Shown here: positions 1-32,597 of the stretch, piece by piece
How the letters are laid out: every line of letters starts with the position of its first letter
Numbering within the stretch: the stretch's first letter is position 1
Assembly (NCBI RefSeq): GCF_022045235.1
Contig: NW_027266286.1
Coordinates: 1,191,856 to 1,255,855 of the forward strand
From: Haliotis cracherodii
Taxonomy: Eukaryota
Reading direction: 5' to 3'
Length of the DNA: 64,000 bases
Translations under genes and position numbers: made by a program
Notes under the pieces: generated by a model
The model's input: the letters and a program-made list of their open reading frames with translations, nothing else
What the model was told of the DNA's origin: nothing
The model's database searches: none

Positions 1-162
1 GTCTCTAGTTTCAGGACATTTTCTGTGGTGGTTTGGGATTTTTCTTTTTTACACAGATCTTCGTCCATGTCTTCATAGGTTACAGTTTCCGGGGTCCAGT
101 CCATATGAGTAGAGGCTTTCAATCGGTCTCGCTTGCGTCTTTTCTTCGATAACTGTTTCTTC
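1..162 (-). CDS. Exon 5 (partial, runs off window), cytoplasmic tail; (R)KKQLSKKRRKRDRLKASTHMDWTPETVTYEDMDEDLCKKEKSQTTTENVLKLET..
   Basis: Acceptor attgtgattgcag|ga at 163-164. A basic stop-transfer cluster directly follows the TM exon in the correct phase, and the frame is open to position 1. An internal ACT|gtaacc could be a donor, so the exon may be shorter. Confidence 0.5.
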
Positions 163-1218
163 CTGCAATCACAATAAATATAATGAACATTATTTCAGTT
201 ATATGTGAGAGAAAAGCCCAAAGTCTTGCAGGTCAAGGTTGTACAAAACAACCTTGACTTGGTCGATGCATGTCATTGTATCCCAATTGGGTGGATCAAT
301 GCTCATGCTGTCAATCACTAGATTTTCTGGTCCAGACTTGATTATTTACAGACCGCTGCCATACAGCTGAATTATTGCTTAGTGCGGCGTTAAACAACAA
401 AGAAATAAACAAATAGCACTGTGACTGTAGTAAGTCTGTGTTAAGGTAGGTAAGTGCTAAGATCGCTTTGTACAACAGCACCCTGGCATTTATGTAAAGG
501 ATAAAACATAACACTGAGGTTTTGCTTGAACATGTAAACCAAAAACATTAGGTTACATTTCAAAACATATCAACATAGATACTCTATTCATATAGTTTAT
601 ATATATGAGAGAGGTGCCATTGCCGCGAGACGATCTATTTATGGAGTCATGTCATGTTGCTTGTGTGTTTTAACGAGTCAGCAAATAGTTTATCTGTTAT
701 AAAATTGGTTTAGCTACACCATCTGTTCAATTTCGGAGCCCAAACAATTCATGGCAAAAGATTGCATCGGTTGAAGTGAGACGACATTTTTGCAACTGTC
801 TACTTGGTCCAAGGGGTGCTACTTTCATGTACAACACGAAGTTCAATGTGATAAGTAGGAGCAGCGATGACTGTAGTGATGATCTTTTGAATGTGTTGTT
901 CATTAGTGATGCTCGAACCTTAATAATTCCACGACACTTGCGCTACGAAGTGATATTCAGTATACTATCTCTATTCCAAACGTATTTGTTCTCGAGTCCT
1001 GTGATAGGCAACTGCAATAACTCACAGACTTGACTTGGCAAGTAAAATAGGTGAATAGTACAGTTTTGAGATGCATGTGTATATGTATCTCTGGTGTTTT
1101 TGTGAAACGTAGTCATGAGGAGACGTTGCCGAGCACAGTGGCACAGTGATACTGACGACCAGGTGCATTAAAAAATAGTTGTGTTTAAAAAAACTGTATT
1201 GTTATTAAATGAGTGGAC

Positions 1219-1514
1219 GGGCTCCGTGGTCTAGTGGTAGAGCATTCACCCAGAGAAGGCAGGGGGTTCGATCCCCGGCAGTGTCATACCAAAAGACGTT
1301 ACAAAATGGTACTTGTTGTTACCCTGTTGGGTGCGTCTGAGTGGGGTATTCATGTTCAACTGCGGCATATTATCTCAATGAACTAGTACTATAAATGGGC
1401 ATCAGTCCGGACTAGTATAAGCAGCCACACACACACACACTCGTGCATGCACTCTGCTATATAAATGCAATAATCTTGACGTGACGTTAAACCCCATTTC
1501 ACCTCACCTCACCT
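1219..1514 (+). mobile_element. SINE family C copy (internally shorter)
   Basis: tRNA-like head gggctccgtggtctagtggtagagc..ggttcgatcccc, then aaaagacgttacaaaatggtacttgttgttaccctgt..tataaatgggcatcagtccggactagta..(ca)n..caataatcttgacg..cacctcacctcacc. Confidence 0.55.
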
Positions 1515-3249
1515 ATTAAATGAATTATCTCCTTACGGGCGAGTAATAAAACAAATTGATAACATGTAAACTATATCTTGTTGGCGTACATGTACTCGCA
1601 AAATATTTTTAAAAAGAATTGTGCATTATAAGTGCCTCTGTAGCCAAGTGATTCACTCAAGGCTACAGACACAAAAGTTACACTTAGATCTCTCTGGAGG
1701 ATGTTAGTCATTTGATATGACGTCATTCGGCCCATGTCCTTAAGTTAGCATTGTAATATATGTCATATAGATTGTGATCAAATGCAAAATAAATCTCTGG
1801 GACAGAATAACTGTCCTTGGGTTATTCTATAGAATTTCTTCGGCAGTCTGGAGATTAAATTATCTTGAGAACAGAAGAAGCTCTAATAAGGATGACATCA
1901 CTTGAGGCTGATATCACTATGGTGAAACCCACGAGCACGGGTATGGTGCTGACAAACTTAGAAACTTAATCAGGACCAATCACAGGTTTCTTACAAATTG
2001 CAGTGACTAGATTCCTCAGGCAGGAGGAGGAGGAGGTGGAGAAGGAGGTTGCATTAGGATTCTATATTACATGAAACATATCACAGAAACTGGAGCCATA
2101 CATTCAGTGACTGTGGTGTGGACAATGCAGAATATTATATGTATGCTTCAGTCAGTCATGACCTGATTGAACGAGGGAATGGATTTCTCTGGTGATTGGA
2201 TAGCAGTTAGCTAGTGTCCCAGATCGGCAATATAACTTGAATAAAACAACAGTATTAGTCATCCAATGAGATTATTTCACATTTAGGTCAGAAAGGTCAA
2301 CAACGGGCGGATTTTCTTTCATAAATCGTAGTAATAGCACTCCCAAATATTGGCATACATTTGTTGGAAATTGATAGCGCAAACACTTCTGGGAAATTTA
2401 TGAGGCAAAGTCGTCAGACTGTTAACAGACTACCACAGACAGAAAAAACACAATATTTTGATGAAATTACAGGCAATGATGTTGCATCAGGACAAACACC
2501 CTTTATATCCCTTTAGCATGTTTTAGCTAAATCGCGTCAAGACTGCGTCATCCCTGAAGATTGGTCAGATTAAACACATTGCCAAATAGTCAAGCTACTG
2601 ATCATTCATTTTCAATATCTGTTTGTGTTTATCTTAAATGATCTTTGACCGAAAGTGATATGGGTAGATTGTGAATCTTTTTATTGTTATTGCCCTGTGT
2701 ATCCATCGAGGCCAAAGGATACAGGGGTCAATAAAAAATACTTTGCGTATGTTCAGCTACTTATTCCTGTGGGTTAATGAAGTTAATATTTAAATCAACC
2801 GAAATTATTAACTGACAATTATGACTGATTGATCGTGATTTTAAAACTAAATATTAATCTCATGCTAGCTACATCTAGACACAGTATTTGTTTTGTGCTT
2901 TTTAGAAAAATCAAAATTCAAATGAGACAAATTTGAATGAATATTCTCTCAAATTGTTTGTTTGTTCTATAAATGAAGGCCAAGGAAGCATGTTAAATGA
3001 GTATGGATAAGGAGAACTTTGTGGTACTAAGCCATTGTAAGTTGACAGATTGTGTGAGTGTTTAACATTTAAATTTAATAGTTGCTATATTCAAATTCTC
3101 AGCTTCTCAACACCTTTGTTTGTTGTGTTTTGCATTATTTCTGTTTCATGTGCAACTTCTGTTTTTAAAAATAATCAGTTATCATGTTGACTTTTGACAT
3201 TTGGGCATTAATTTGGGGCGGGGGCAGATATAGTCAACGCATAGTCTGT

Positions 3250-4075
3250 CTGCCCGTCCGTAATCATTTAGTTTCCAGAGCATAACTCGAAAACCTGTCA
3301 ATATCTTTCAACAAAACTTGGCAGGTATATCAAACAGATCTTGAACTGGTTCCTTTTGCTATTTTTGGACTTTTGGCGTTTTTATTTTCCACGCTTTCCT
3401 TGGAAACAATTTGTATTTAGTCTCTTTAGGGGTAGTTTTCGTTTCCGGAGCATAACCCGAAAACATTTCAATATCCTTCAACAAAACTTGGCAGATATAT
3501 CAAACAGATCCTGAAGTGGTGCCTTTTGCTATTTGCAGATATTTTGCATTTCTATTTTTCTCCATTTCCATGGAAACAATTTTGACTTACTCTCAAAATG
3601 TGGATTTCATTTCTGGAGCACAACTTAAAATCCTTGAAAGACTATACATCCAAACCTGGTACATGTATTAACCAAGGGCTGAAGTGCTGCATCCAAACCT
3701 GGTACATGTATTAACCAAGGGCTGAAGTGCTGCATCCAAACCTGGTACATGTATTAACCAAGGGCTGAAGTGCTGCATCCAAACCTGGTACATGTATTAA
3801 CCAAGGGCTGAAGTGCTGTGTTTTGCTCTATAGGAATTTTTCCAAATTACATTTGTCCCTGTGTCCATGGAAACAAGTTCGACTTAGCTGAAAGGAGGTA
3901 GGTGTTGTTTTCTGAGCAGAGCTAGATAAACTAGTCAACCTTTCTCATCAAAACTTGGTACATGTATTAATCAGGGGCTGAAGTGCTGCCTCTTGCTATT
4001 TAGGAATTTTCTTTTAAATATTTTTTGTCTGTTGTTGTCTGGCAACAAGCTTGATTTGACTCTGTTTCTATGGGT
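3250..4075. repeat. About 175-bp higher-order tandem repeat (about 4.5 units) with an embedded 42-bp sub-array at 3640-3830
   Basis: Recurring ..tcaacaaaacttggYaNRtatatYaaNcagRtc..gctatttNcagRWWttt..ccatggaaacaaKtt.. blocks. Four exact 42-bp copies of atccaaacctggtacatgtattaaccaagggctgaagtgctgc. Confidence 0.7.
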
Positions 4076-4327
4076 GTGTCTGACATAGAAATACAAATTG
4101 CCGAATCCAGATTCCATTCTTGTTTTGATTGCTCAATAACTACTCTGGTACACAGACAGATGAGATCAAAATTCTCTCAATGTAACAGTCAGATGATTTG
4201 TTCTTAGGGGCGGGGGAATTGTCATTCTGATGACTCTTGTCACCCTGTGAAATGCATTGACCATGCATCTATTTATGTTTATTTAATTATATTTCTTTAT
4301 GATGATGATGATGATGATGACAGTTAC

Positions 4328-4412
4328 CTGTAAATCAGCCAGAATGTTACGACAGCTGCTCCCAACACAACGAAAGCAAGACACAACATTATGATCGCAG
4401 CAATCATGGTCC
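4328..4412 (-). CDS. Exon 4, transmembrane helix; (G)TMIAAIIMLCLAFVVLGAAVVTFWLIY(+ag)
   Basis: Acceptor tatatttgcag|gg, donor ACAG|gtaact followed by an (ATC)7 microsatellite. A 25-residue hydrophobic helix in the frame required by exon 3. Confidence 0.65.
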
Positions 4413-4555
4413 CTGCAAATATAAAACACATTAATGAGCCTTTGTAGCTGAAAGATAGGCTTTGTATAGTGACTCTATCTTACTTGAATGTGCATCTCAA
4501 ATTATCAATGCCCACCTTGCCAAATTGACAAAGTATGAAATAGTGTATCAGTTGT

Positions 4556-6630
4556 CCACAATGGCTCCTCAGTCTCAACAAAATCCCTGGGGTACGTTCA
4601 ACAAAGTGATCGCCGCTCTAAGGTGATCGTAACTCCTATACTTTAACATAGACTTCAGACAGTCGTAGCACTAAGGTGATTGTAACTCCCATACTTAAAC
4701 ATAGACTTCAGACAGTCGTAGCACTAAGGTGATCGTAACTCCCATACTTTAACATTGACTTCAGACAGTCGTAGCACTAAGGTGATCGTAACTCCCATAC
4801 TTTAACATTGACTTCAGACAGTCGTAGCACTAAGGTGATCGTAACTCCCATACTTTAACATAGACTTCAGACAGTCGTAGCACTAAGGTGATCGTAACTC
4901 CTATACTTTAACATTGACTTCAGACAGTCGTAGCACTAAGGTGATCGTAACTCCTATACTTTAACATTGACTTCAGACAGTCGTAGCACTAAGGTGATCG
5001 TAACTCCTATACTTTAACATAGACTTACGACAGCCATAGCGCTAAGGTAATCGTAACTCCTATACTTGAATATAGACTTACGACTGTCATAGCACTAAGG
5101 TGATCGTAACTCCTATACTTTAACATAGACTTCAGACATTCGTAGCACTAAGGTGATCGTAACTTTTATACTTGAATATAGACTTACGACTGTCATAGCA
5201 CTAAGGTGATCGTTACTCCTATACATTAACATATACTTCAGACAGTCGTAGCGCTAAGGTGATCGTAACTCCTATACTTTAACATAGACTTCAGACAGTC
5301 GTAGCGCTAAGGTGATCGTAACTCCTATACTTTAACATAGACTTCAGACAGTCGTAGCGCTAAGGTGATCGTAACTCCTATACTTTAACATAGACTTACG
5401 ACAATGGTAGTGCTTAGGCGATCGTAACTCCTATACTTTAACATAGACTTACGACAGTCGTAGCACTAAGGTGATCGTAACTCCTATACTTTAACATAGA
5501 CTTACGACAGCCATAGCGCTAAGGTAATCGTAACTCCTATACTTGAATATAGACTTACGACTGTCATAGCACTAAGGTGATCGTAACTCCTATACTTTAA
5601 CATAGACTTCAGACAGTCGTAGCACTAAGGTGATCGTAACTTTTATACTTGAATATAGACTTAAGACTGTCATAGCACTAAGGTGATCGTAACTCCTATA
5701 CATTAACATATACTTCAGACAGTCGTAGCGCTAAGGTGATCGTAACTCCTATACTTTAACATAGACTTCAGACAGTCGTAGCGCTAAGGTGATCGTAACT
5801 CCTATACTTTAACATAGACTTCAGACAGTCGTAGCGCTAAGGTGATCGTAACTCCTATACTTTAACATAGACTTCAGACAGTCGTAGCGCTAAGGTGATC
5901 GTAACTCCTATACTTTAACATAGACTTCAGACAGTCGTAGCGCTAAGGTGATCGTAACTCCTATACTTTAACATAGACTTACGACAATGGTAGCGCTTAG
6001 GCGATCGTAACTCCTATACTTTAACATAGACTTACGACAGTCGTAGCACTAAGGCGATCGTAACTCCTATACTTTAACATAGACTTACGACAGTCGTAGC
6101 ACTAAGGTGATCGTAACTCCTATACTTTAACATAGACTTACGACAGCCATAGCGCTAAGGTAATCGTAACTCCTATACTTGAATATAGACTTACGACTGT
6201 CATAGCACTAAGGTGATCGTAACTCCTATACTTTAACATAGACTTCAGACAGTCGTAGCACTAAGGTGATCGTAACTTTTATACTTGAATATAGACTTAC
6301 GACTGTCATAGCACTAAGGTGATCGTAACTCCTATACATTAACATATACTTCAGACAGTCGTAGCGCTAAGGTGATCGAAACTCCTATACTTTAACATAG
6401 ACTTCAGACAGTCGTAGCGCTAAGGTGATCGTAACTCCTATACTTTAACATTGACTTCAGACAGTCGTAGCGCTAAGGTGATCGTAACTCCTATACTTTA
6501 ACATAGACTTACGACAATGGTAGCGCTAAGGCGATCGTAACTCCTATACTTTAACATGGACATACGACTGTCGTAGCGCTAAGGTGATCGTAACTCCTAT
6601 ACTTTAACATAGACTTACAACAATGGTAGC
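4556..6630. repeat. About 60-bp tandem array (about 33 units) derived from the core of a palindromic MITE-like element (termini gggtRcgttcaacaaagYga..tcgctttgttgaacgggaccc)
   Basis: Unit tcgtagcRctaaggtgatcgtaactcctatactttaacatagacttcagacag. Solo copies of the palindromic element lie at 47757-47875, 50989-51096 and about 420-495. In intron 3 of the minus-strand gene. Confidence 0.8.
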
Positions 6631-6810
6631 CCTATGTTTGCTTTGGGGAACAGGTCCCAGATACAGTTGTGGTTCACCCCTGCCATGATGCATCTATTCT
6701 TGTCTGTTTTTAAAACTTGGTCCACTGAAACTTGCCTCAGTCATAAAGATGTAACAAATAATGTTTTGGTTGAAAACTTTAGCCAGTTCTAGAGCTGTTC
6801 AATCTGAGCA

Positions 6811-6982
6811 GGGGTGGTCTGGTAGCCTAGTGGTTAAAGCATTTGCTCACCACGCCGAAGACCCGAGTTCGATTCCCGACATCGGTACAATGTGTAAAGT
6901 CTATTTCTGGTGTCCCCCGCCGTAATAATTCTGGAATATTGCTAAAAGCTGCGTAAAATCCTACTCGTTCACTCACTCAATC
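6811..6982 (+). mobile_element. SINE family A copy
   Basis: ggtggtctggtagcctagtggttaaagc..cgagttcgattcccgac..ggtacaatgtgtaaag..ttctggtgtcccccgcc..attgctaaaagctgcgtaaaatcc..actcactcaatc. Confidence 0.6.
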
Positions 6983-7037
6983 TTAGCAGTGTTACTGTCA
7001 TGTTGAAGTGATCTTCTAATTTATGTTACATACTTAC

Positions 7038-7208
7038 CATTTTCTCCATGGGCCATGGATGGGGGGCTGGCGCTGGGGCTGGGGCTGGGGTTGGGGCTGG
7101 GGCTGGGGCTAGGGCTAGGGCTGGCGTTGGTTGTCTGTAAGTTCAGAATGTCGTAGCCCAGGAAAGATTCTTCCTCAGACTTTGACTTACAGGTGAAATT
7201 AATATTAC
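7038..7208 (-). CDS. Exon 3, membrane-proximal stalk; (G)NINFTCKSKSEEESFLGYDILNLQTTNASPSPSPSPSPNPSPSPSASPPSMAHGEN(+g)
   Basis: Acceptor tgtgtttcag|gt at 7208. Canonical donor AATG|gtaagt at 7037. Phase matches exon 2 (end phase 1) and exon 4. Contains a coding (GGGGCT)n run encoding (SP)n. Confidence 0.6.
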
Positions 7209-7319
7209 CTGAAACACATGTACACAGATATAAGAAGAGTGGTGATGTGGCTACATGGACCTCATTGATTTACATTCTTGACTTTAGCCTTCAACCATCC
7301 TGACCCACGTCCAAAATCC

Positions 7320-7610
7320 TAGCAGGACAACTATCTTAGCACATCTACCTTAATCAACATCTGTCTTAGCCAACAACAGTCTTAGCACAACAATTATCTT
7401 AGCACAACAACTATCTTAGCACAACAACAGTCTTAGCACAACAACTATCTTAGCACAACAACTATCTTAGCACAACAGTCTTAGCCAACAACAGTCTTAG
7501 CACAACAACTATCTTAGCACAACTATCTAAGCACAACAACAGTCTTAGCATAACAACAGTCTTAGCCAACAACTATCTTAGCCAACAACTATCTTAGCCA
7601 ACAACTACAG
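7320..7610. repeat. 20-bp minisatellite acaactatcttagcacaaca
   Basis: Visible tandem periodicity in intron 2 of the minus-strand gene. Confidence 0.8.
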
Positions 7611-8060
7611 TTAATCTTAAGAATAACGAGAACGTGAATTAAATGCGAAAAATCTGAGTGGTCTTTGCATTATTGAAACTTCGCATTTATGTCTAAAAAA
7701 TGACTATCAACAATAAGATGGCCTCATTTCATACTTTTAGTAGCGGAAAAACCAACTTGAATATATACACAAACACGGTTTATTGAGCAGCAGTTGTAAC
7801 AAGTATATAACAATGTCATTCAAAGAAAAGGAATTACATAATAGGCATCAAGGGTTGTACCCACTCGTGTCAAACTAATAAGGCCGTCCAGCAGTCCAGA
7901 CAGGCACCACCCACGCAACACTTTGTCAAAGGCGGACACGACCCAACGCGCACCGATAGGCTTCATCACACTCCCCAGATATACAGCCTTTTTGTTGTCA
8001 TCTGCCTTCAATTTTTTTTGAAACCTTATCCGCATACTAATCTGTGAACTGTTGTTGGTT

Positions 8061-8332
8061 GAGTGAGTAAGTGAGTTGGGTTTAATGCCGCTTTTAACAC
8101 TGTGTCAGCTTAATGTGGGAGGAAAGCCAGAAGTGATGCAGGTCTCAGACATTCACCACTTCGGTGAAACCCACGAGCACGGGTATGGTGCTGACAAAAC
8201 TAGAAACGTAATCGGGGCGAACCGGGATTCGAACCCACAATCATAGTTTTCTGGCGTGCCCAAGGGACGCAACTCTGCACAGCGAGTCGCGGCGCCTTAG
8301 AAGAATGGGGCGCCTTAGAAGAATGGGCCACC
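8061..8332 (-). mobile_element. SINE family B (different tRNA-like head ..gcgtcccttgggcacgcc..gggttcgaatcccgg.., body ..gtcagcaccatacccgtgctcgtgggtttcacc.., same 3' tail module as family A)
   Basis: Plus strand shows (gagt)n + gggtttaatgccgcttttaacact (RC of the family-A-like tail), then body and head. Second copy at 40270-40504(-); fragments at about 1898-2000 and 52784-52872. Confidence 0.55.
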
Positions 8333-8518
8333 TGTGCCCCCTTATTGCCTTTGAACTTCCTTAATGCCTGTCAACAGAATAAACGTATAAACTGTGTGTT
8401 GTTTTTAGGAAAGAACTGTTTATTGTTTATATGGAAGTGCTCTTCTCGGCATTTTTGCTAGGGTTCAGCAGTCGTATTAATTTGGAGACGCATTAATTTC
8501 CAGATTTACAGTATCTCA

Positions 8519-9105
8519 GCTCACTCACTCACTCACTCACTCACTCACTCACTCACTCACTCACTCACACACTAAAACTGGTATAAACTGGTATAAACAG
8601 ATGTAGCCATGGTAGAAACAGATGAAGCCATGGTATAAATAGATGGAACTTCAGTATAAATAGATGGAACCTCAGTATAAATAGATGGAACCTCAGTATA
8701 AACAGATGTAGCCATGGTAGAAACAGATGAAGCCATGGTATAAATAGATGGAACCTCAGTATAAATAGATGGAACCTCAATATAACCAGATGGAGCCATG
8801 ATAGAAACAGATGGAGCCATGGTATAAATAGATGGAACCTCAGTATAAACAGATGTAGCCATGGAAGAAACAGATGAAGCCATGGTATAAATAGATGGAA
8901 CCTCAGTATAAACAGATGGAACCTCAATATAACCAGATGGAGCCATGATAGAAAGAGATGGAGCCATGGTATAAATAGATGGAACCTCAGTATAACAGAT
9001 GCCCATTTCAACTGTCCCCTGCCATGCTATTGCTGGAATATTGCTTAAAGCGGTGTAAAACCACACTCACTCACTCACTCACTCACTCACTCACTCACTC
9101 ACTCA
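8519..9105. repeat. 21-bp minisatellite (atagatggaacctcagtataa / acagatgRagccatggtaKaa) bounded on both sides by (CACT)n microsatellites
   Basis: (cactcact)n at 8519-8572 and 9058-9105. Track ORFs 8565..9011 and 8572..9066 are periodic artefacts. Confidence 0.8.
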
Positions 9106-9129
9106 CAGAATCGCTGTAGGGCAAGGCAA

Positions 9130-10735
9130 TGTATATTTGCGTTGATGTTATAGTAATAATAGTGGGATGTTACAGAAGTAATAGTGGGATGTTACAGTAA
9201 AAATAGTGGGATGTAACAGTAGTAATAGTGGGATGTTACAGTAGTAATAGTGGGATGTTACAGTAATAATAGTGGGATGTTACAGTAGTAATAGTGGGAT
9301 GTTACAGTAATAATAGTGGGATGTTACAGTAGTAATAGTGGGATGTTACAGTAATAATAGTGGGATGTTACAGTAGTAATAGTGGGATGTAACAGTAATA
9401 ATAGTGGGATGTTACAGTAATAATAGTGGGATGTTACAGTAGTAATAGTGGGATGTTACAGTAGTAATAGTGGGATGTTACAGTAGTAATAGTGGGATGT
9501 AACAGTAATAATAGTGGGATGTTACAGTAGTAATAGTAGGATGTTACAGTAATGAGTGAGTGAGTTTGGTTTTACGCCGCTTTTAGCAATATTCCAGCAA
9601 ATATCACGGCGGGGGACACCAGAAATGGGTTTCACACATTGTACCCATGTCGGGAATCGAACCCGGGTCTTCGGCGTGACGAGCGAACGCTTTAACCACT
9701 AGGCTACCCGACCGCCCCGGATGTTACAGTAGTAATAGTGGGATGTTACAGTAGTAATAGTAGGATGTTACAGTAATAATAGTGGGATGTTACAGTAGTA
9801 ATAGTGGGATGTTAAAGTAGTAATAGTGGGATGTTACAGTAGTAATAGTAGGTTGTTACAGTAATAACAGTGGGATGTTACAGTAGTAATAGTGGGATGT
9901 TACAGTAAAAATAGTGGGATGTTACAGTAAAAATAGTGGGATGTTACAGTAATAACAGTGGGATGTTACAGTAGTAATAGTGGGATGTTACAGTAGTAAT
10001 AGTAGGATGTAACAGTAATAATAGTGGGATGTTACAGTAGTAATAGTAGGATGTTACAGTAATAACAGTGGGATGTTACAGTAGTAATAGTGGGATGTTA
10101 CAGTAGTAATGGTGGGATGTAACAGTAATAATAGTGGGATGTTACAGTAGTAATAATAGGATGTTACAGTAATAACAGTGGGATGTTACAGTAGTAATAG
10201 TGGGATGTTACAGTAGTAATAGTAGGATGTAACAGTAATAATAGTGGGATGTTACAGTAGTAATAGTAGGATGTTACAGTAGTAATAGATGGATGTTACA
10301 GTAGTAATAGTAGGATGATACAGTAATAATAGTGGGATGTTACAGTAGTAATAGTGGGATATTAAAGTAGTAATAGTGGGATGTTACAGTAGTAATAGTA
10401 GGATGTTACAGTAATAACAGTGGGATGTTACAGTAGTAATAGTGGGATGTTACAGTAGTAATAGTAGGATGTAACAGTAATAATAGTGGGATGTTACAGT
10501 AGTAATAATAGGATGTTACAGTAGTAATAGTGGGATGTTACAGTAGTAATAGTAGGATGATACAGTAATAATAGTGGGATGTTACAGTAGTAATAGTGGG
10601 ATGTTACAGTAGTAATAGTGGGATGTTACAGTAGTAATAGTAGGATGTTACAGTAATAACAGTGGGATGTTACAGTAGTAATAGTGGGATGTTACAGTAG
10701 TAATAGTGGGATGTAACAGTAATAATAGTCAGGTG
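9130..10735. repeat. 22-bp minisatellite agtaatagtgggatgttacagt (about 65 units, interrupted by a SINE at 9554-9718), abutting the exon 2 donor of the minus-strand gene
   Basis: On the minus strand the first unit after GCAG|gtaacacctgactattatt is actgtaacatcccactattact, i.e. a copy of the donor region. Confidence 0.85.
9554..9718 (-). mobile_element. SINE family A copy inserted inside the 22-bp minisatellite
   Basis: Reverse complement of the family-A consensus. Array units flank both sides (..gatgttacagtaat| and |gatgttacagtagtaat). Confidence 0.6.
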
Positions 10736-10739
10736 TTAC

Positions 10740-11174
10740 CTGCACCAAAGACGCTGAGATACAGATGGCCGTTCTGCGTCAAGTTGTGGAACGCCTCCAA
10801 GGTGATAGTTCTTTCTGTTGTGTTCTTCCAGCAGTGCTGTGGTATGATGGATTGTGAGGAGTTTCCCGAATGTATCAAACAGTCAGATCCAGTCAAATTA
10901 TTTTGCATTGTAGGCAGATCTAGACCATACGATATGATGGCAGGCGTATTGTTTTTTGTCATGTCGTATGTCACACCGATAGAGACACTTCCAGGGCCAA
11001 GGTTTTCATTTGTCGGTTTGAACCTCTTTAATGTGACATAGAAGTCCTCTTGTGATTGAAGTTTACAGGAGCAAAGAGGAGCAGTAAATTTCGCTCCCTC
11101 ATCCATGTATAATATCACGGGGGTCTGGGAGCTGTTTGTCTCCTGGTCGGTACACATGGGAATGAGACGAGAGG
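10740..11174 (-). CDS. Exon 2, ectodomain with about 8 N-x-S/T sequons and 5 Cys; ..ASRLIPMCTDQETNSSQTPVILYMDEGAKF..NLTQNGHLYLSVFGA(+g)
   Basis: Non-repetitive 142-aa ORF 10729..11157(-) in the track. Acceptor ttttccag|cc at 11174. Donor GCAG|gtaaca at 10739. No stops for 145 codons and GC-rich codon usage. Confidence 0.7.
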
Positions 11175-11456
11175 CTGGAAAAGGAAGAAAAATACAATTA
11201 GTTGCTGGTTCGGGTCCAAATTGAGATTTAGTGGCAAGCTAGGAACATTTTGTATTTATTAGACAAATGAAGTATTTGTAAATTTCTTTTGCCGGACCTA
11301 CACCTATGTCCTAGCCTCTGACAACTCCAAGGCTATATATACTACAAAGAGTCATAGGTCTTCATAGGGGTTATTTCAACAAAATATTAATTTATGTTAG
11401 ATTTAAATAATGTCTTTGGTATTTATCTTCTCTCTGTGCTGGTAATCTAAATAAAT

Positions 11457-11606
11457 CGGGGCGGTCAGGTAACCTAGTGGTTTAAGCGTTCATTCATCAC
11501 GCCAAGACCCGGGTACGATTCCCATTTCTGGTGTCCCCCCTGCCGTGATATTGCTCGAATATTGCCAAAAGCGTCATAAAACCATATTTACTCACTCACT
11601 CACTCT
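11457..11606 (+). mobile_element. SINE family A copy (internal deletion)
   Basis: gggcggtcaggtaacctagtggtttaagcg..ttctggtgtcccccctgccgtgatattgc..aaaagcgtcataaaacc..(actc)n. Confidence 0.55.
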
Positions 11607-11904
11607 AAGTAAATCATAATGTCCAATATTTGTAGTTATATTTGCAGATAACAGATTAACTTCTACAGCAGCTGCTATGTATTATTATAAATCTTTACAT
11701 GATGATGGGACTCATCAGACTCAGTACTGTCCGCAATTAGTATCATCAGCGTCTTTACTTGTGTCGTTATTTTAAATACAAAAAATAAAGCAATAAAGAA
11801 TTCAATTGACATGCAAACATCAACCTATTTTTCATTCGGGAAATCAAGTCGCAAGCAGAAGCCTGTTGTCTTGCACTTGGAGGTACGCTACTGCATGTAA
11901 TGAT

Positions 11905-12375
11905 TCTTGCTGACAAAGCCAACCACATGTTTATTGCACCTGTGGACATGGATTGACAGGTGTTTATTGCACCTGTGGACATGGATTGACAGGTGTTTAT
12001 TGCACATGTGGACATGGATTGACTGGTGTTTATTGCATCTGTGGACATGGATTGACAGGTGTTTATTGCACATGTGGACATGGATTGACAGGTGTTAATT
12101 GCATCTGTGGACATGGATTGACAGGTGTTTATTGCACATGTGGACATGGATTGACAGGTGTTTATTGCATCTGTGGACATGGATTGACAGGTGTTTATTG
12201 CACATGTGGACATAGATTGACAGGTGTTTATTGCATCTGTGGACATGGATTGACAGGTGTTTATTGCACCTGTGGACATGGATTGACAAGTGTTTATTGC
12301 ATCTGTGGACATAGATTGACAGGTGTTTATTGCATCTGTGGACATGGATTGACAGGTGTTTATGTACCTGTGGAC
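11905..12375. repeat. 33-bp minisatellite ggattgacaggtgtttattgcacMtgtggacat (about 14 units)
   Basis: ORFs on both strands (11767..12345, 11953..12396) have 11-aa periodicity. Confidence 0.8.
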
Positions 12376-12677
12376 ATTCTTCTGATTATAAAGTAATGAC
12401 TCAGAAATACGAGTGATAGCGACATAAAGTAAAAATATGATAGATCTGCTATCTTCAGACCTATTCTCCCCAGGAATCTCAATCGCTTAGTCAATGAAAT
12501 CGATGAACACGGTGTCCCACAACGAGTAGAAACATCCTCTGTAGTTTTATACTAACACCAGCAGGAAGTGTCAACACGCCACACACACCAGGGCCACTGT
12601 GACTGGTCAGTGCTGCTGCTGTTCCTATAGTTTACAGTTTGGCTTACGGGAGGAATGGTACTACATATGTATTGACC

Positions 12678-13212
12678 GCCTGTGTGGTCTAGTGGTAGAG
12701 CGTCCGCCCTGACAGCAGAAGGTCTGGGGTTTGATCCCCGGCTGCGTCATACCATAAGACGTTAAAAGATGGTACTTGTTGTTACCCTGTCTGGGGCTCG
12801 GGAATTAAAGGGCTAAAAACAAGGACTGGTCGGCTCGGAGTCAGTATACTGTGTCTGAGTGGGATATTCATGTTAAACTGTGGCATGGTATCTCAGTGGG
12901 CTAGCACTATAAATCGGCATCAGTCCGGACTAGTACAAGCAGCCACACACACACATACATGCATATCACTATTTAAGTGGGGGCGGTCGGGTAGCCTAGT
13001 GATTAAAGCGTTCGCTCGTCACGCCAATGACCCGGGTTCGATTCCCGACATGGGTACAATGTGTGAAGCCCATTTCTTGTGTCCCCCGCCGTGATATTGC
13101 TGGAATATTGCTAAAAGCCGCGTAAAACCATACTCACTCACTCACTCACTATTTAAGTGCAATAATCTTGGACGCGATGTTTAACCCCACTTCACCTCAC
13201 CTCACTACACAT
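12678..13212 (+). mobile_element. SINE family C (tRNA-derived head ggtctagtggtagagc..ggtttgatcccc, about 300 bp body, (CA)n, 3' cacctcacctcac) with SINE-A nested at 12980-13150
   Basis: Same element occurs at 1219-1514(+) and 32722-33052(-). The tRNA-like acceptor stem does not pair, so this is a SINE and not a tRNA gene. Confidence 0.6.
12980..13150 (+). mobile_element. SINE family A (tRNA-like head gggcggtcgggtagcctagtggttaaagcg..gggttcgattccc; tail ttgctaaaagcggcgtaaaacc + (ACTC)n) with 13-bp TSD cactatttaagtg
   Basis: Direct repeats cactatttaagtg at 12967-12979 and 13147-13159 flank the insert. The interrupted sequence is contiguous in the other SINE-C copy (..tataaatgcaataatcttg..). Confidence 0.7.
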
Positions 13213-13476
13213 GTATCATGAATGGGTTCCTTTGAAAGACCTGGGATGCATCAGCAGGACATGTAATTCATTTGATGATAGTAAATGCATCTGTATGTCC
13301 GTGCTCTGTGCTCACGGGGCCAAGTCATCATCAGCTCAGTCAAGTGGACAGTGTGCATACACATCACATTCGTCACATTACCATCTCATCCTACCGGGTA
13401 CCCATTCACTGCTTGGTGAACAGAGGCATGCCCCTGGCCCCAGATGGAACTCGTGTCAACTCGTCATACCCCAGAC

Positions 13477-13634
13477 GGGCAGTCAGGTAGCCTAGTGGTT
13501 TAAGCGTTCACTCGTCACGCCGAAGACCAGACATGGGTACAATGTGTGAAGCCCATTTCTGGTGTCCCCCATCGGGATATTGCTGGAATATTGCTAAAGG
13601 CAGTGTCAAATCATATTCACTCACTCACTAACTC
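13477..13634 (+). mobile_element. SINE family A copy
   Basis: gggcagtcaggtagcctagtggtttaagcg..ggtacaatgtgtgaagcccatttctggtgtccccc..ttgctaaaggcagtgtcaaatc..cactcactcactaactc. Confidence 0.55.
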
Positions 13635-13639
13635 ATGTG

Positions 13640-14754
13640 TGTCATATCTCATACCTAGATGGAACTCATGTGTCATACCCCAGACCCAGATGGAACTCAT
13701 GTGTCATACCCCAGACCCAGATGGAAGTCATGTGTCATACCTCATAACCAGATGGAACAAGTGTGTCATACCCCAGTCCCAAATGGAGCTCGTGTCATAC
13801 CCCAGACCCAGGTGGGACAAGTGTGAGACTTACCGTGCCCTAGGTGGGACTCGTGTGTCATACCCCCTACCCAGGTGGGACAAGTGTGTCATACCCTCTA
13901 CCCAGGTGGGACAAGTGTGTCATACCCCCTACCCAGGTGGGACAAGTGTGAGACTTACCGTGCCCGAGGTGGGACTCGTGTGTCATACCCTCTACCCAGG
14001 CGGGACAAGTGTGAGACTTACCGTGCCCCAGGCGGGACAAGTGTGAGACTTACTGTGCCCCAGGTGGGACAAGTGTGAGACTTACCTTGTCCCAGGTGGG
14101 ACAAGTGTGAGACTTACCTTGCCCCAGGTGGGACAAGTGTGAGACTTACCGTGCCCCAGGCGGGACTCGTGTGTCATACCCTCTACCCAGGCGGGACAAG
14201 TGTGAGACTTACCGTGCCCCAGGCGGGACAAGTGTGAGACTTACTGTGCCCCAGGCGGGACAAGTGTGAGACTTACTGTGCCCCAGGCGGGACAAGTGTG
14301 TGACTTACTGTGCCCCAGGTGGAACAAGTGTGTGACTTACTGTGCCCCAGGTGGAACAAGTGTGAGACTTACTGTGCCCCAGGCGGGACAAGTGTGAGAC
14401 TTACTGTGCCCCAGACGGGACAAGTGTGAGACTTACTGTGCCCCAGGTGGAACAAGTGTGAGACTTACTGTGCCCCAGGTGGAACAAGTGTGAGACTTAC
14501 TGTGCCCCAGGTGGAACAAGTGTGAGACTTACTGTGCCCCAGGCGGGACAAGTGTGAGACTTACTGTGCCCCAGGCGGGACAAGTGTGAGACTTACCGTG
14601 CCCCAGGTGGGACTCGTGTGTCATACCCTCTACCCAGGTGGGACTCGTGTGTCATACCCTCTACCCAGGCGGGACAAGTGTGAGACTTACCGTGCCCCAG
14701 GCGGGACAAGTGTGAGACTTACCGTGCCCCAGGCGGGACAAGTGTGAGACTTAC
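13640..14754. repeat. 31-32-bp composite minisatellite. Proximal units are copies of the minus-strand exon 1 end plus its GTAAGT donor (minus reading ggggcacg|gtaagtctcacacttgtcccgcct).
   Basis: The array starts exactly at the donor (14754) and runs through intron 1. Distal units shift to tcataccccagacccagatggaactcatgtg. Confidence 0.85.
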
Positions 14755-14806
14755 CGTGCCCCAGAGACGTGACAGCCAGGAGAATGTACAGTGTGTTGGC
14801 CTCCAT
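14755..14806 (-). CDS. Exon 1 (coding part) of a novel type I membrane glycoprotein; signal peptide MEANTLYILLAVTSLGH(+g)
   Basis: ATG with Kozak context (A at -3, G at +4) and a hydrophobic h-region. Canonical donor CACG|gtaagt. The phase-1 end joins exon 2 in frame. Not in the ORF track; the listed ORF 14719..14952 is in another frame. Confidence 0.5.
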
Positions 14807-17780: not shown

Positions 17781-18999
17781 TGGAGGAAACACTATGTCAT
17801 TCATACACCCAGTCACTCTTTGATACAATCACTCATGCTGTCATTCGTTCATTCACCCGTTCGTTCATGCATTCATTAATTCATTCACATAACCCTTCAC
17901 TCATACTTCAACTTGATCACTCTTTCCCCAAGTCATTGAATCACTGTATTTTGTCACTGACTGAATTGTTTTGAGACAGTGACCGTGGCGTTGTAGTGGA
18001 GGAGATGGTGGTATCAGTGCAGCATGTATGTCTTCCTGATCAGTCGACATCGAGACCGTGGCACCTAACACACAAGGAACAAACAGGGTTGCGGCCTCCT
18101 AACAACCACTGCAGATTGTTGCAAGGCATATTCCGTGTTGACCCAGGAAGTCAATGTCCTTGTGCACAATGGGTTATCATAATAACTACAAACATCCTGA
18201 ACACAATGTGAGTGTTTAGATTGAGGACATGATAAACAACTTTGACAGCTTTCATAGAAAAGGATGATGTTTCTATTGTTGAGTGACGTGATGACATGTT
18301 GTTGCTGCAATGACATCCTCATTAATCCAGGTTGTTATATCTCCACTCAATCTTGATAAAAAAAACCTGGACATTCTCTACCAATACCCAGTTGCCTCTT
18401 ACAACACTGTTTTTTCAATCATTTCTGTGAATTTGAGAAAATTGTGACTATAATGTATTCCTGTGCCACTTCATTGTTGATGTTCATGCTATCAACCACT
18501 GGTTTGTTTACTTCAACCCGGCAAATATTGAACATCAGGGAGTCCTTTCAACTCATGACAAGCTGACAGTTTCCTCCTCACGACAACTTGATAAACAGAC
18601 TTGTTATCTGGGTGGGATGTTCCTGTGATGGCCTTGGTGGCGATTGTGGTAGAAGACGGGCGTATTTCTGTGTTCACCAGGACGTGTATTTATTTGCTCA
18701 CTGAAAATCCTTATGCTGATCATGACCTAACTCCTACAATCATGTTAATTATTTAATCAATTTATTAAAATGTGCATCTGGTGTGCACAATGACTGAACG
18801 CAGAAAAAGAATATGCTGTGTCCTGAGGGACCACAATAATACTCATTGTACCCACAGCGCATGAAGAACAGTTGTTGGTGTCTGTTATTTCATCCCTCAA
18901 TCAATCAATTATCTAAACATACAGCACACTACACCATTTCATTACTTTACAGGACATCCAAATTGCCAACAAGGACCCTTAAAATGAGGGTAGGTGGGG

Positions 19000-19153
19000 T
19001 AGGCTAGTTGTTAAAGTGTTCGCTTATCACGCCGAAGATCCAGGTTCAATTCCCCACATAAATACAATGTTTGAAGCCCATTTCTGGTGTCTCGTGCCAT
19101 GATATTGCTGGAATATTTCTAAAAGGAGCATAAAACAATACTCCCTCACTCAC
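19000..19153 (+). mobile_element. SINE family A copy (diverged) immediately upstream of the 48-bp array
   Basis: ggtaggctagttgttaaagtg..ccaggttcaattcccc..aatgtttgaagcccatttctggtgtc..attgctggaatatttctaaaagga..ctcactcacc. Confidence 0.5.
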
Positions 19154-25446: not shown

Positions 25447-25785
25447 GTAGGTGGCTTGTTTTCAGTCATCTGACATCTTTTTGAAAACTACACGGCCAGT
25501 GGAGCTGAAACGTGAGGCTGTGAAAAGAATGTGAGTTAAGATGTCTTTGACTTTGTTGAACAAGGCCCAGTTCTTCAGGTATGTCAGGAGTGTTGTCAGT
25601 CAGCTCGATGTGCAGGAAGAACCAGGTCTTAGACGTTTGTCACTTGGTGTCACCTGCTGGTATGGTTTTGACGCTGACAAATACAATCATTATCAGGACG
25701 ACTCTGGCACTTAACCCATGATTATCGGACTGCACTGCACAGCAAATGAGGCACTGATTGTTATGTTTGTTATGTTTCCTGGTAG

Positions 25786-25954
25786 CGACCTGGCCCAGAA
25801 GGTCCCCCTGGCGGTGAACCCCCACTCGTACGACTCCGCCCACACCAAAACCCACATCCTGCTGCAGGCTCACTTCTCCCAGATGCAGCTGCCGTCCACC
25901 GACTACTACACCGATACCAAGTCTGTCCTGGACCAGGCTATCAGGATCCTCCAG
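25786..25954 (+). CDS. SNRNP200: SNRNP200 exon; (S)DLAQKVPLAVNPHSYDSAHTKTHILLQAHFSQMQLPSTDYYTDTKSVLDQAIRILQ
   Basis: Acceptor tttcctggtag|c, donor CAG|gtgggt. Strong match to human [54 protein letters not shown]. GC-rich codon usage versus AT-rich flanks. Confidence 0.9.
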
Positions 25955-25959
25955 GTGGG

Positions 25960-28900
25960 TCACCTCAACCTCCCCTCAACCCCATCAAAGCCCTCAACTT
26001 CCCACAACCCCCCTCAACTTCCCACAAACCCCACAACTTCCCACAACTCTCCTCAATCCCCCTCAACCTCCCCTCAACCCCCTTTAACTCCCCTCAATCC
26101 CCCCTCAAGTCCCCTCAACTCCCCATAATTCCCCTCAACTCCTCATAACTCAACTCAACCTCCCCCCCACCCCCGTCAAACCAACACCCCTCAACCCCAC
26201 AACTCCCTTAGTCCCTGAATCCCTGAATCCCCTTCTCAACCAGCTCACACTTCTTACACACAACCTAAAATCCCTCAGACCCTTCAACACCACTCAAACA
26301 CCCTCACACAACCTCAAACAGCTCAAACTCACACCCCACAAGCCCCTACCCCTCACCCATCTCATCTCTCAGTGATGGACCAAGCCACCCTAGCACACCC
26401 TAGCACATCCCAACACACCCCAGCACACCCCAGCACACCCTAGCATGCCCTAGCACATTAGCACACCCTAGCACACCATAGCACACCCCAGTACACCCTA
26501 TCATGCCCTAGCACACCCTAGCACACCCCAGCACACCCTAGCATGCCCTAGCATGCCCTAGTACACCCTAGCACACCCTAGCATGCCCTAGTACACCCTA
26601 GCACACCCTAGCACACCCTAGTACACCCCAGTACACCCTAGCACACCCCAGTACACCCTAGCATGCCCTAGTACACCCTAGCACACCCTAGCACACCCTA
26701 GCACACCCCAGTACACCCTAGCATGCCCTAGTACACCCTAGCACACCCTAGCACACCCTAGCATGCCCTAGCACACCCTAGCACACCCCAGTACACCCTA
26801 GCACACCCTAGCACGCCCTAGCACACCCTAGCATGCCCTAGCACACCCTAGCACACCCCAGTACACCCTAGCATGCCCTAGTACACCCTAGCACACCCTA
26901 GTACACCCTAGCATGCCCTAGCATGCCCTAGCACACCCTAGCATGCCCTAGTACACCCTAGCACACCCTAGTACACCCTAGCATGCCCTAGCACACCCTA
27001 GCACACCCCAGTACACCCTAGCATGCCCTAGCACACTCCAGTACACCCTAGCATGCCCTAGCACACCCCAGCACACCCCAGTACACCCTAGCACACCCTA
27101 GCATGCCCTAGCACACCCCAGTACACCCTAGCATGCCCTAGTACACCCTAGCACACCCTAGCACACCCCAGTACACCCTAGCATGCCCTAGTACACCCTA
27201 GCACACCCTAGCACACCCCAGTACACCCTAGCATGCCCTAGTACACCCTAGCACACCCCAGTACACCCTAGCACACCCCAGTACACCCTAGCATGCCCTA
27301 GTACACCCTAGCACACCCTAGCACACCCTAGTACACCCTAGCACACCCTAGCACACCCTAGCATGCCCTAGTACACCCTAGCACACCCCAGTACACCCTA
27401 GCATGCCCTAGTACACCCTAGCACACCCTAGCACACCCTAGCACACCCTAGTACACCCCAGTACACCCTAGCACACCCCAGTACACCCTAGCATGCCCTA
27501 GTACACCCTAGCACACCCTAGCATGCCCTAGCACACCCTAGCACACCCAGGCACACTCCAGTACACCCTAGCATGCCCTAGTACACCCTAGCACACCCTA
27601 GCACACCCTAGCACACCCTAGTACACCCCAGTACACCCTAGCACACCCCAGTACACCCTAGCATGCCCTAGTACACCCTAGCACACCCTAGCACACCCTA
27701 GCATGCCCTAGCACACCCTAGCACACTCCAGTACACCCTAGCATGCCCTAGCACACCGTAGCACACTCCAGTACACCCTAGCACACCCTAGCACACCCTA
27801 GCATGCCCTAGCACACCCTAGCACACCCCAGTACACCCTAGCACACCCTAGCACGCCCTAGCACACCCTAGCATGCCCTAGCACACCCTAGCACACCCCA
27901 GTACACCCTAGCATGCCCTAGTACACCCTAGCACACCCTAGTACACCCTAGCATGCCCTAGCACACCCTAGCATGCCCTAGTACACCCTAGCACACCCTA
28001 GCACACCCTAGTACACCCTAGCATGCCCTAGCACACCCTAGCACACCCCAGTACACCCTAGCATGCCCTAGCACACTCCAGTACACCCTAGCATGCCCTA
28101 GCACACTCCAGTACACCCTAGCATGCCCTAGCACACCCCAGCACACCCCAGTACACCCTAGCACACCCTAGCATGCCCTAGCACACCCTAGCACACCCCA
28201 GCACACTCCAGCACACCCTAGCACACCCCAGTACACCCTAGCACACCCTAGCACGCCCTAGCACACCCTAGCACACCCCAGTACACCCTAGCATGCCCTA
28301 GCACACCCTAGCACACCCCAGTACACCCTAGCATGCCCTAGCACACCCCAGCACACCCCAGTACACCCTAGCATGCCCTAGCACACCCCAGTACACCCTA
28401 GCATGTCCTAGCACACCCTAGCACACCCCAGCACACCCCAGTACACCCTAGCACACCCCAGTACACCCTAGCATGTCCTAGCACACCCTAGCACACCCCA
28501 GCACACCCCAGTACACCCTAGCACACCCTAGCATGCCCTAGCACACCCTAGCACACCCCAGTACACCCTAGCATGCCCTAGCACACCCTAGCACACCCTA
28601 GCATGCCCTAGCACACCCCAGTACACCCCAGTACACCCTAGCACACCCTAGCATGCCCTAGCACACCCTAGCACACCCCAGTACACCCCAGTACACCCTA
28701 GCATGCCCTAGCACACCCTAGCACACCCCAGTACACCCTAGCACACCCTAGCATGTCCTAGCACACTCTAGCACACCCTAGCACGTCCCAGTACACCCTA
28801 GCACACCCTAGCATGTCCTAGCATGCCCTAGCACACCCTAGCACACCCCAGCACACTCCAGCACGCCCTAGCACACCCTAGCACACCCCAGCACACCCCA

Positions 28901-28990
28901 GCACACCCTAGCACACCCCAGCACACTCCAGCACGCCCTAGCACACCCTAGCACACCCCAGCACACTCCAGTACACCCTAGCAGACTCCA
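25960..28990. repeat. Degenerate (cccctcaaY)n tract, then a 2.6 kb array of 10-bp cctagcacac variants (cctagtacac, cctagcatgc), in the SNRNP200 D-E intron
   Basis: Visible periodicity at 26340-28990. ORFs 25718..26128 and 28868..29101 are artefacts. Confidence 0.85.
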
Positions 28991-29809
28991 GCACGCCCAT
29001 TCCCACTCCACCCACTCTCCACTCCACAACCATTTCTTTCCCTGAGAACCATGTTCAACAAGTGTAGCTCCTTCCAGGCATGTGACACCTTCGGTACACA
29101 CTCGGTATCATCGCTGCCACCAGTGTGGGCGCGGCCATTACAAAAATCTTGAAATTTGGCCTCTAACCCCAAATGTAGTAAAGTTTATACTTTTGTTAAT
29201 GTCTTTGGGAATGCCATCACAGTTAATTTTGAAAAGGTTTACGACTGATCATATTTCCCAGATGAATTTACATTTTTGTTTGATTGATCGGATTGGTTCG
29301 AGATTGCAGACAAACAGAAATTCAACCAACTTCCCCCTTAATATAACAAATGTTATATTTGGGATAACACTTTCTTTGTATAGTACAGATTCTCGTACTT
29401 GTTTAGGTTGAGTTCCACCCACACATGCCAGAGTGAGGCACCTTATCGCCAGCACACAAAGCCACCAATCTAACCCACTCAGCCACCGAGGCTTCCACAA
29501 AATGAAAGTCCAACAACTGGTAGTCTAGATCACGTACTTTGTGTACCCCTCTGAACAAATTTCTGTGCAAATTGGCACAGCTCCCATGGCCGAAAGCTAT
29601 GAATACTCATTGCATTTAGAAAGTGGTCAAATGTACATTCTTATTTTACCAGTTACATGATAGTTGTAATGAAAATAGAAATTCAAACTGGGAAACAAAG
29701 AAAATAATTAAGCTGGGGTAAGAGTATTCAGCGTCACGGCAGTCATCAATTGTTTCTAAACATAACTGTCAGTCGACTGCGAGTTCAACACCAAGCATGG
29801 TTGTAGCCA

Positions 29810-30300
29810 CCTATCGCAGTAGGGAGCTTTGACTGATGGTAGCAATAGTATAGAGAGCACCGCGAACGGGATATATCTGTGAGGAGTTTTGACTGGTGGC
29901 AGCAATAGTATAGAGAGCGCCGCTAAAGGGATATCTGTGAGGAGCTTTGACTGTTGGCAGCAATAGTATAGAGAGCTCCGTGAATGGGATATCTCTGTGA
30001 GGAGCTTTGACTGGTGGCAGCAATAGTATAGAGAGCACAGCGAACGGGATATATCTGTGAGGAGTTTTGACTGGTGGCAGCAATAGTATAGAGAGCGCCG
30101 CGAACGGGATACATCTGTGAGGAGCTTTGACTGGTGGCAGCAATAGTATAGAGAGCTCCGTGAACGGGATATCTCTGTGAGGAGCTTTGACTGGTGGCAG
30201 CAATAGTATAGAGAGCTCCGCGAACGGGATATCTGTGAGGAGCTTTGACTGGTGGCAGCAATAGTATAGAGAGCTCTGTGAATGGGATATCTCTGTGAGG
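29810..30300. repeat. About 59-bp minisatellite gagctttgactggtggcagcaatagtatagagagcNccgYgaacgggatatctctgtgagga (about 8 units)
   Basis: Periodic ORFs on the minus strand (29756..30391 etc.). Confidence 0.8.
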
Positions 30301-30431
30301 AGCTTGCCAGCAAGCAGTCAAAGAGAGACAACTCTTTCAACACTAGGACATGTGCTCCTGTTTTGGTTTGGTTTGGGGTCAGACGCTGCAACAGCTGTAG
30401 TTTCTAATTTGCTTCTAATGTCACCTCACAG

Positions 30432-30583
30432 GCCATGCTGGATGTGTCAGCGGACCAGGGATGGTTGGCGACGTCACTGCGGGTGATTCAACTGATCCAG
30501 ATGGTGGTGCAAGGTCGATGGCTGGAGGACTCGACCCTCCTCACCCTCCCTAACGTCATGCCCTACCATGTGTACTGCTTCAG
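30432..30583 (+). CDS. SNRNP200: SNRNP200 exon; AMLDVSADQGWLATSLRVIQLIQMVVQGRWLEDSTLLTLPNVMPYHVYCF(+ag)
   Basis: Acceptor cacctcacag|gcc, donor CAG|gtacgt. Matches human [50 protein letters not shown]. Phase 0 continuity with the previous exon (..AIRILQ|AM..). Confidence 0.88.
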
Positions 30584-31800: not shown

Positions 31801-31845
31801 ACTCCTACTGTATAAAGTGACAGACAGGACATGTTGTTTGTTCAG

Positions 31846-31996
31846 GCCCCGAGGTGGAGGCGCCAGGCAGAAAGGTTTCCCAGAGCTGCGAGGACCAATC
31901 GAAACTCTCCCAGAGCTTGTGGCGGTGTGTGAGGGGAAGTTTGAGGCCCTGGCTGCCATGTTGAATGGTGAAATGAACCAGACAGAGATTGATCAG
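31846..31996 (+). CDS. SNRNP200: SNRNP200 exon; (R)PRGGGARQKGFPELRGPIETLPELVAVCEGKFEALAAMLNGEMNQTEIDQ
   Basis: Acceptor tgtttgttcag|g, donor CAG|gtgagg. Starts in phase 1 and ends in phase 0. Corresponds to human ..[32 protein letters not shown]. Confidence 0.8.
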
Positions 31997-32026
31997 GTGA
32001 GGTCTTGTCTTACTCTTGTAGGGGAC

Positions 32027-32554: not shown

Positions 32555-32597
<43 letters not shown>

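Follow-up and report, generated by a model that had tools for sequence, protein, structure and literature searches.

A spliced, Haliotis-restricted gene of the black abalone encodes a predicted type I membrane glycoprotein with conserved tyrosine motifs in a long cytoplasmic tail

We analyzed a 64,000-nucleotide stretch of the genome of the black abalone Haliotis cracherodii (assembly GCF_022045235.1, contig NW_027266286.1, positions 1,191,856 to 1,255,855; hereafter the window), the left end of which carries a minus-strand gene for a putative surface receptor. An earlier note, made from the letters alone, had proposed a five-exon gene at this place by reading splice sites, and that reasoning proved exact. 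The coding exons occupy positions 14806-14755, 11174-10740, 7208-7038, 4412-4328 and 162-1 of the window. Joining them yields 905 nt, or 301 codons in an open frame, and creates no stop codon. The translation is identical to residues 1-301 of XP_071113984.1, an 869-residue H. cracherodii protein that RefSeq names “uncharacterized protein isoform X1”. The black abalone has a genuine, spliced, protein-coding gene here, and the identity of the 301 residues with the start of isoform X1 shows that it has already been annotated: the model is public in RefSeq and was missed only by the prokaryote-style open reading frame (ORF) track. The description of the gene as unlisted thus holds for that track but not for RefSeq, and as a gene discovery the analysis adds nothing, since the model is in RefSeq.

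All internal exon borders follow the AG...GT rule, and the exons begin in phases 0, 1, 1, 1 and 2. The earlier note gave consistent phases of 1, 1, 1 and 2 but spoke of five introns, where there are four. The frame of each exon hits a stop within a few codons past its donor, as expected for true exons. Coding exon 1 (14755-14806, minus strand, as are all five) opens with an ATG at 14806-14804 in a favorable context, gcagcATGg, contributes 52 nt (17 codons plus 1 nt) and ends at the donor GGCACG/gtaagt; it matches XP_071113984.1 exactly, and its product is the signal-peptide-like MEANTLYILLAVTSLGH. Exon 2 (10740-11174; 435 nt, phase 1-1, acceptor ttttccag, donor gtaacacc) encodes most of the ectodomain fold. 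Exon 3 (7038-7208; 171 nt, phase 1-1, acceptor tgtttcag, donor gtaagtat) carries the final conserved strand region, which includes the sixth invariant cysteine (NINFTC...SFL..ILNL), and then a Ser/Pro stalk. Exon 4 (4328-4412; 85 nt, phase 1 to 2, acceptor atttgcag, donor gtaactgt) supplies the predicted transmembrane helix TMIAAIIMLCLAFVVLGAAVVTFWLIY. The first 162 nt of exon 5 (1-162, acceptor gattgcag) encode the stop-transfer sequence RKKQLSKKRRKRDRLK and the start of the cytoplasmic tail. The gene runs past coordinate 1, as had been anticipated: exon 5 extends beyond the window for a further 568 codons. A Logan genomic contig (L001, run DRR299178) shows the same acceptor followed by an uninterrupted exon to a TAA stop. 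Exon 5 is accordingly the sole terminal exon, about 1.87 kb long, and the gene has five coding exons in total. A tblastn search of the 64-kb window found no paralogous exon copies.

RefSeq also holds a second isoform of 812 residues, XP_071113985.1, which bears the name “serine-rich adhesin for platelets-like isoform X2” and differs from X1 solely by the skipping of exon 3 (57 residues). Compared with X1, isoform X2 loses the sixth invariant cysteine together with the stalk. In H. rufescens, the isoform X2 model in RefSeq begins at Met24 (MCTDQ...) and lacks the signal-peptide exon. This start probably reflects an incomplete 5′ end or an alternative first exon rather than a cytosolic isoform.

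The amino terminus of the protein, MEANTLYILLAVTSLGHA, is hydrophobic and shares 71-82% identity with its counterparts in H. asinina and H. rubra. Its hydrophobic core LYILLAVTSLG and the GHA/S that follows are conserved in both of these species, and the segment resembles a cleavable signal peptide. The ectodomain contains nine N-glycosylation sequons between residues 31 and 219, six in exon 2, two in exon 3 and one across the exon 3/4 junction. The five cysteines attributed to exon 2 in the earlier note are present, whereas its estimate of about eight sequons exceeds the six N-x-S/T sites in that exon. All predicted sequons fall on the luminal or extracellular side, with 8-10 per orthologue in all four species. 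Six cysteines are invariant across the four species (C25, C52, C54, C116, C132 and C169), enough for three potential disulfides. Five of them are in exon 2. C169, the further cysteine that had been noticed beside the Ser/Pro stalk, is encoded by exon 3 next to the conserved SFL..ILNL segment, which indicates that the fold spans exons 2 and 3 and that the exon-3-skipped isoform would be left with an odd cysteine.

AlphaFold2 modeled the four ectodomains as a 12-strand beta sandwich, with a predicted local distance difference test score (pLDDT) of 68.7 and a predicted template modeling score (pTM) of 0.72; given exon 2 as a single sequence, it reached a pLDDT of 35. The model suggests an all-beta fold of about 170 residues that could be heavily N-glycosylated. 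The stalk that follows owes its (SP)n run to a GGGGCT hexanucleotide microsatellite of 10.3 copies within exon 3 (7063-7124, minus strand). The Californian species H. cracherodii and H. rufescens carry a longer run than do H. rubra and H. asinina. The protein has exactly one Kyte-Doolittle hydrophobicity peak, at residues ~222-247 (19-mer maximum 3.03), with basic residues on its carboxy-terminal side. The type I topology proposed earlier fits the conserved hydrophobic amino terminus and the single hydrophobic segment of 25 residues followed by RKKQLSKKRRKRDRLK. From its sequence, the product is predicted to be a single-pass type I surface glycoprotein with a polybasic stop-transfer stretch.

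The tail comprises 622 residues, of which 13.7% are serine and 16% are aspartate or glutamate. Its conservation is patchy, with invariant islands (DEEIYVNQ, [IM]YQNV, KPYENL, NNNLYE[DG]IN, MMENDxYExLKG, YD[VI]A and EEFENV) between variable, indel-rich linkers. Ten of the 15 tyrosine columns in the tail are invariant, compared with 48% of all columns, and the flanks of Y504, Y625, Y650, Y760 and Y827 form such islands amid variable sequence. Motifs of the type YxN occur four times against an expectation of 0.75 (shuffle P = 0.005), and three of the four (YVNQ, YQNV and YENL) are unchanged in each of the five sequences. The positions just before the tail tyrosines (-4 to -1) show a roughly two-fold excess of acidic residues. 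The tail also contains six YxxPhi motifs and a single DDTDLL; the H. asinina counterpart of the latter, DDTNMLI, still fits D-x-x-x-L-[LI].

An exhaustive phmmer search with exon 2 against 1.84 billion representatives returned a 100% match to the 812-residue isoform and a 50% match to a protein of 669 residues, XP_046570902.1, the product of LOC124279145 of H. rubra. A search with isoform X2 and a five-sequence profile search found matches in Haliotis alone. The homologues comprise LOC124112360 of H. rufescens, an H. asinina protein that is also named “serine-rich adhesin for platelets-like isoform X2”, the H. rubra protein and the contig from DRR299178. One phmmer match outside Haliotis (E = 9e-4, 29% identity over 42 residues) was to a repetitive, N-x-T-rich protein and was rejected as compositional. 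The absence of a recognizable homologue, remarked on from the sequence alone, holds outside Haliotis both in this exhaustive search and in the two word-indexed ones (with isoform X2 and with the profile), and within the reach of these searches the gene appears to be confined to Haliotis. In Pfam, the full-length protein matched no family at E <= 0.01, and searches of Protein Data Bank sequences with the ectodomain, as a single sequence and as a four-sequence profile, gave no meaningful match. Literature searches by LOC and XP identifier, and by RefSeq name in combination with Haliotis, turned up no relevant work.

In H. rubra, the orthologue is likewise laid out in five exons. Its locus (L002) is colinear with the window, including intronic minisatellites, and its exons of 52, 441, 135, 76 and 1306 nt have AG/GT borders and the same phases as in H. 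cracherodii. The two proteins are only about 50% identical, though the exon structure has been kept. We estimated the ratio of non-synonymous to synonymous substitution rates (dN/dS) pairwise by the Nei-Gojobori method (NG86), with H. rubra as the reference comparison. The ratio was 0.46 over all 281 aligned window codons (dN 0.35, dS 0.76), 0.56 over the 167 codons of the ectodomain fold, and 0.51 over the 393 codons of the whole tail when the DRR299178 contig was compared with H. rubra. This result indicates net purifying selection and, because the ratio is about 0.5, a gene that is constrained yet evolving fast. The H. rubra model ends at 669 residues (...KASITQQI, then a stop; exon 5 at L002 17820-19125), without the last ~200 residues, a stretch that H. 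cracherodii, H. rufescens, H. asinina and the DRR299178 contig share in conserved form. Either GCA_003918875.1 contains a frameshift or assembly error at this place, or the truncation is real.

We compared the protein with known systems that it resembles in one part or another. With the LAT, NTAL (LAT2) and LAX adaptors of vertebrate leukocytes it shares a single membrane pass, a long domain-free tail and several conserved tyrosine motifs, including repeated Y-x-N. However, LAT-type adaptors have an extracellular stub of fewer than 20 residues, whereas the abalone protein carries a predicted folded, glycosylated ectodomain of about 200 residues. LAT, NTAL, LAX and PAG have a juxtamembrane CxxC, while the stretch after the abalone helix, YRKKQLSKKRRKRDRLK, contains no cysteine, and the full-length protein has no sequence match to the Pfam models of these four families at E <= 0.01. 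The abalone protein is not a member of the LAT, NTAL, LAX or PAG families; the resemblance is one of functional analogy only, and the protein may work like these adaptors. The ectodomain recalls CUB and other jelly-roll ectodomains (Kremen1, C1s/MASP and neuropilin; SID1; GOLD) in its predicted compact two-sheet beta sandwich, its potential disulfides, its extracellular position and its phase 1-1 exon. No Pfam match to CUB (PF00431) was found even at E <= 10, nor was there one for the full-length protein. There was likewise no Pfam match to an immunoglobulin (Ig) family, V-set included, and at 12 strands the model exceeds an Ig domain in size. Neither a CUB nor an Ig domain can be demonstrated in the protein. 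Its likeness to staphylococcal SraP, the adhesin from which the RefSeq name derives, consists of elevated serine content only. SraP is a bacterial wall protein anchored through LPXTG, with very long serine-dipeptide repeats, whereas the abalone protein is the spliced product of a predicted type I membrane protein gene and ends ...FFSNERL, without LPXTG. The two are unrelated, and the RefSeq name “serine-rich adhesin for platelets-like” is a misleading, compositional artefact of automatic naming.

The right-hand neighbor of the gene is ASCC3. On the plus strand, positions 25718-38519 contain its 3′-terminal exons, which encode the C-terminal (second) Sec63 cassette; the cassette gives a Pfam Sec63 match and aligns with human ASCC3 (8alz_B) from chain residue 1472 with E = 1.4e-79. 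With this match at 25.7-38.5 kb as a positive control, no ASCC3 exon was found on the plus strand between 1 and 25.7 kb. In H. rubra, an opposite-strand gene of 2199 residues spans the whole 29-kb locus around the orthologue. Taken together, the lack of ASCC3 exons left of 25.7 kb and the H. rubra annotation suggest that the membrane-protein gene is nested antisense in a large ASCC3 intron in both species; in the window, this intron appears to be at least 25 kb long.

Tandem repeats, as masked by Tandem Repeats Finder (TRF), make up 30,055 of the 64,000 window bases (47%). A 32-bp minisatellite of about 30 units (13807-14764, minus strand) reaches 10 nt into exon 1 and occupies the 5′ end of intron 1. 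The array contains nine exact copies of the donor GGCACGgtaagt (11 GGTAAGT in all), among which only the first, at the exon end 14755, gives phase 1 together with an open frame; the nearest extra donors, at 14723 and 14691, leave the frame open in the wrong phase. The repeated donors are a possible source of non-productive splicing. H. rubra has a minisatellite array at the corresponding exon 1/intron 1 position. Further arrays lie at 4618-6616 (53 bp x 38), at 9144-10729 (22 bp x 72, ending 11 nt after the exon 2 donor), at 11928-12377 (33 bp x 14) and at 40.8-45.5 kb, where a 24-bp unit is open in all six frames. Arrays of several kilobases create long spurious ORFs in all frames, and these dominate the ORF list.

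A dispersed repeat of ~165 bp is found at 6807-6958, 9553-9721, 11457-11600, 12980-13146, 13477-13629, 18978-19146, 32074-32155 and 40685-40830, and recurs at several sites of the H. rubra locus. Two copies attain the Rfam gathering score for tRNA (9642-9713, minus strand, and 12985-13056, plus strand; 29-30 bits), and ARAGORN calls no tRNA in either; the repeat is probably a tRNA-derived short interspersed nuclear element (SINE). Inside an ASCC3 intron, a minus-strand ORF of 128 residues at 33939-34325 weakly matches the GIY-YIG nuclease domain (E = 2.4e-4, marginally under the Pfam cut-off) and may be the relic of a mobile element bearing such a nuclease. Another ORF on this strand, at 61216-61602, matches HTH_Tnp_Tc3_2 (E = 5e-9) and is a fragment of a Tc1/mariner-type transposon. 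Two more minus-strand ORFs, at 54130-54792 and ~55900-56317, flank a 21-bp minisatellite and have in common a nearly identical segment of some 60 residues (CLVFCCFICLHCPFWSDMVFQASG.PYIPYI.SHSLSFHSRYRSADTRVSPDRDLTP) that has no Pfam match; the pair represents either a duplicated exon or a repeat. Finally, a tblastx comparison aligned window positions 56747-56995 with positions 1031-1279 of the H. rubra locus (45% over 83 residues), inverted relative to the colinear region.

We favor, with moderate confidence, the interpretation that the protein is a receptor-like glycoprotein that signals through phosphotyrosine docking; its function is inferred from the features described above. In this scheme, the ectodomain would be a jelly-roll module that binds a ligand or partner and that an O-glycosylated stalk keeps at a distance from the membrane. 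The tail would serve as a flexible scaffold in which kinases of the Src or Syk type would phosphorylate the invariant acidic tyrosine islands DEEIYVNQ, IYQNV, KPYENL, NNNLYE[DG]IN and MMENDxYExL; EEIY offers Src a favorable substrate context. Once phosphorylated, the islands would dock SH2 proteins, and the pY-x-N sites, which conform to the Grb2/Drk SH2 consensus, would recruit adaptors of the Grb2/Drk type. The Y-x-x-L/I sites preceded by acidic residues resemble hemITAMs or halves of immunoreceptor tyrosine-based activation motifs (ITAMs). The whole protein might then work like a receptor joined to a transmembrane adaptor of the LAT type, and the YxxPhi motifs and the conserved DxxxL[LI] could additionally drive its endocytosis.

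Several observations weigh against this interpretation. The structural model has moderate confidence, only two of the five models exceeded a pLDDT of 59, and all derive from four closely related sequences. The enrichment of conserved tyrosines is modest (0.67 versus 0.48), and short linear motifs are weak predictors. The protein itself contains no SH2-, PTB- or kinase-related domain. In addition, two distal tyrosine islands are absent from the 669-residue H. rubra model, either because the model is truncated or because the motifs are dispensable.

An alternative that we consider unlikely, but that retains some weight, is that the gene encodes a fast-evolving recognition protein for gametes, larval settlement or pathogens, in which rapid change of the ectodomain is the functional trait and the tail serves mainly in trafficking. 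Abalones are a classic case of fast-evolving reproductive proteins, lysin and VERL among them. Between H. cracherodii and its sister species H. rufescens, exon 2 is 81% identical and the tail segments are 90-96% identical, so that the ectodomain is the most divergent structured part, and its dN/dS of 0.56-0.58 is high for a structured domain. Of the seven differences from the DRR299178 abalone at the beginning of exon 5, six are non-synonymous, a sample too small for a test, and the adjoining intron differs at 4.2% of its sites. The confinement of the family to Haliotis also points to such a role. On the other hand, pairwise dN/dS is below 1 everywhere it was measured, and the six cysteines and the core strands are invariant. 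This alternative is compatible with phosphotyrosine signaling rather than exclusive of it.

It is doubtful that the protein is instead a mucin-like adhesion protein or an endocytic cargo receptor that performs no phosphotyrosine signaling. Its YxxPhi motifs and acidic dileucine would then be AP-2/AP-1 signals, and the acidic, serine-rich tail would be a trafficking region regulated by casein kinase. The six YxxPhi motifs and the one DDTDLL, the serine and acidic content of the tail, the Ser/Pro stalk and the nine sequons are all consistent with this alternative. However, the invariance around DEEIYVNQ, KPYENL and MMENDxYExLKG exceeds the four residues of an AP-2 mu2 site, and the over-represented asparagine at +2 is not needed by sorting signals.

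A more far-reaching version of the receptor interpretation, which we regard as speculative and improbable as a whole, is that the protein belongs to a Haliotis- or vetigastropod-specific receptor family that was born in the ASCC3 intron. Such a family would combine a new disulfide-rich jelly-roll ectodomain, under diversifying selection to recognize pathogens or gametes, with an independently evolved invertebrate counterpart of the LAT/hemITAM-type tail, uniting receptor and adaptor in one chain.

That the model is spurious or decaying, whether as chance ORFs stitched together in a repeat-rich ASCC3 intron or as a pseudogene, is highly improbable: the tandem-repeat content of the locus, the exon 1 donor inside a minisatellite, the antisense nesting within another gene, the lack of any Pfam domain and the fact that RefSeq models are computational predictions would fit it, but an 869-codon frame spread over five exons has been kept in at least four species and a fifth contig, H. 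rubra has identical phases and canonical splice sites, dN/dS is ~0.5 rather than ~1 at a dS of 0.6-0.8, and the cysteines and motif islands are invariant.

The locus thus holds an uncharacterized, genus-restricted and fast-evolving putative surface receptor whose tyrosine motifs are conserved. The black abalone is critically endangered, and its disease (withering syndrome) and its gamete recognition are both active research topics. If the tail is truly a phosphotyrosine scaffold, the protein would provide a useful case of the lineage-specific invention of receptor signaling in molluscs.

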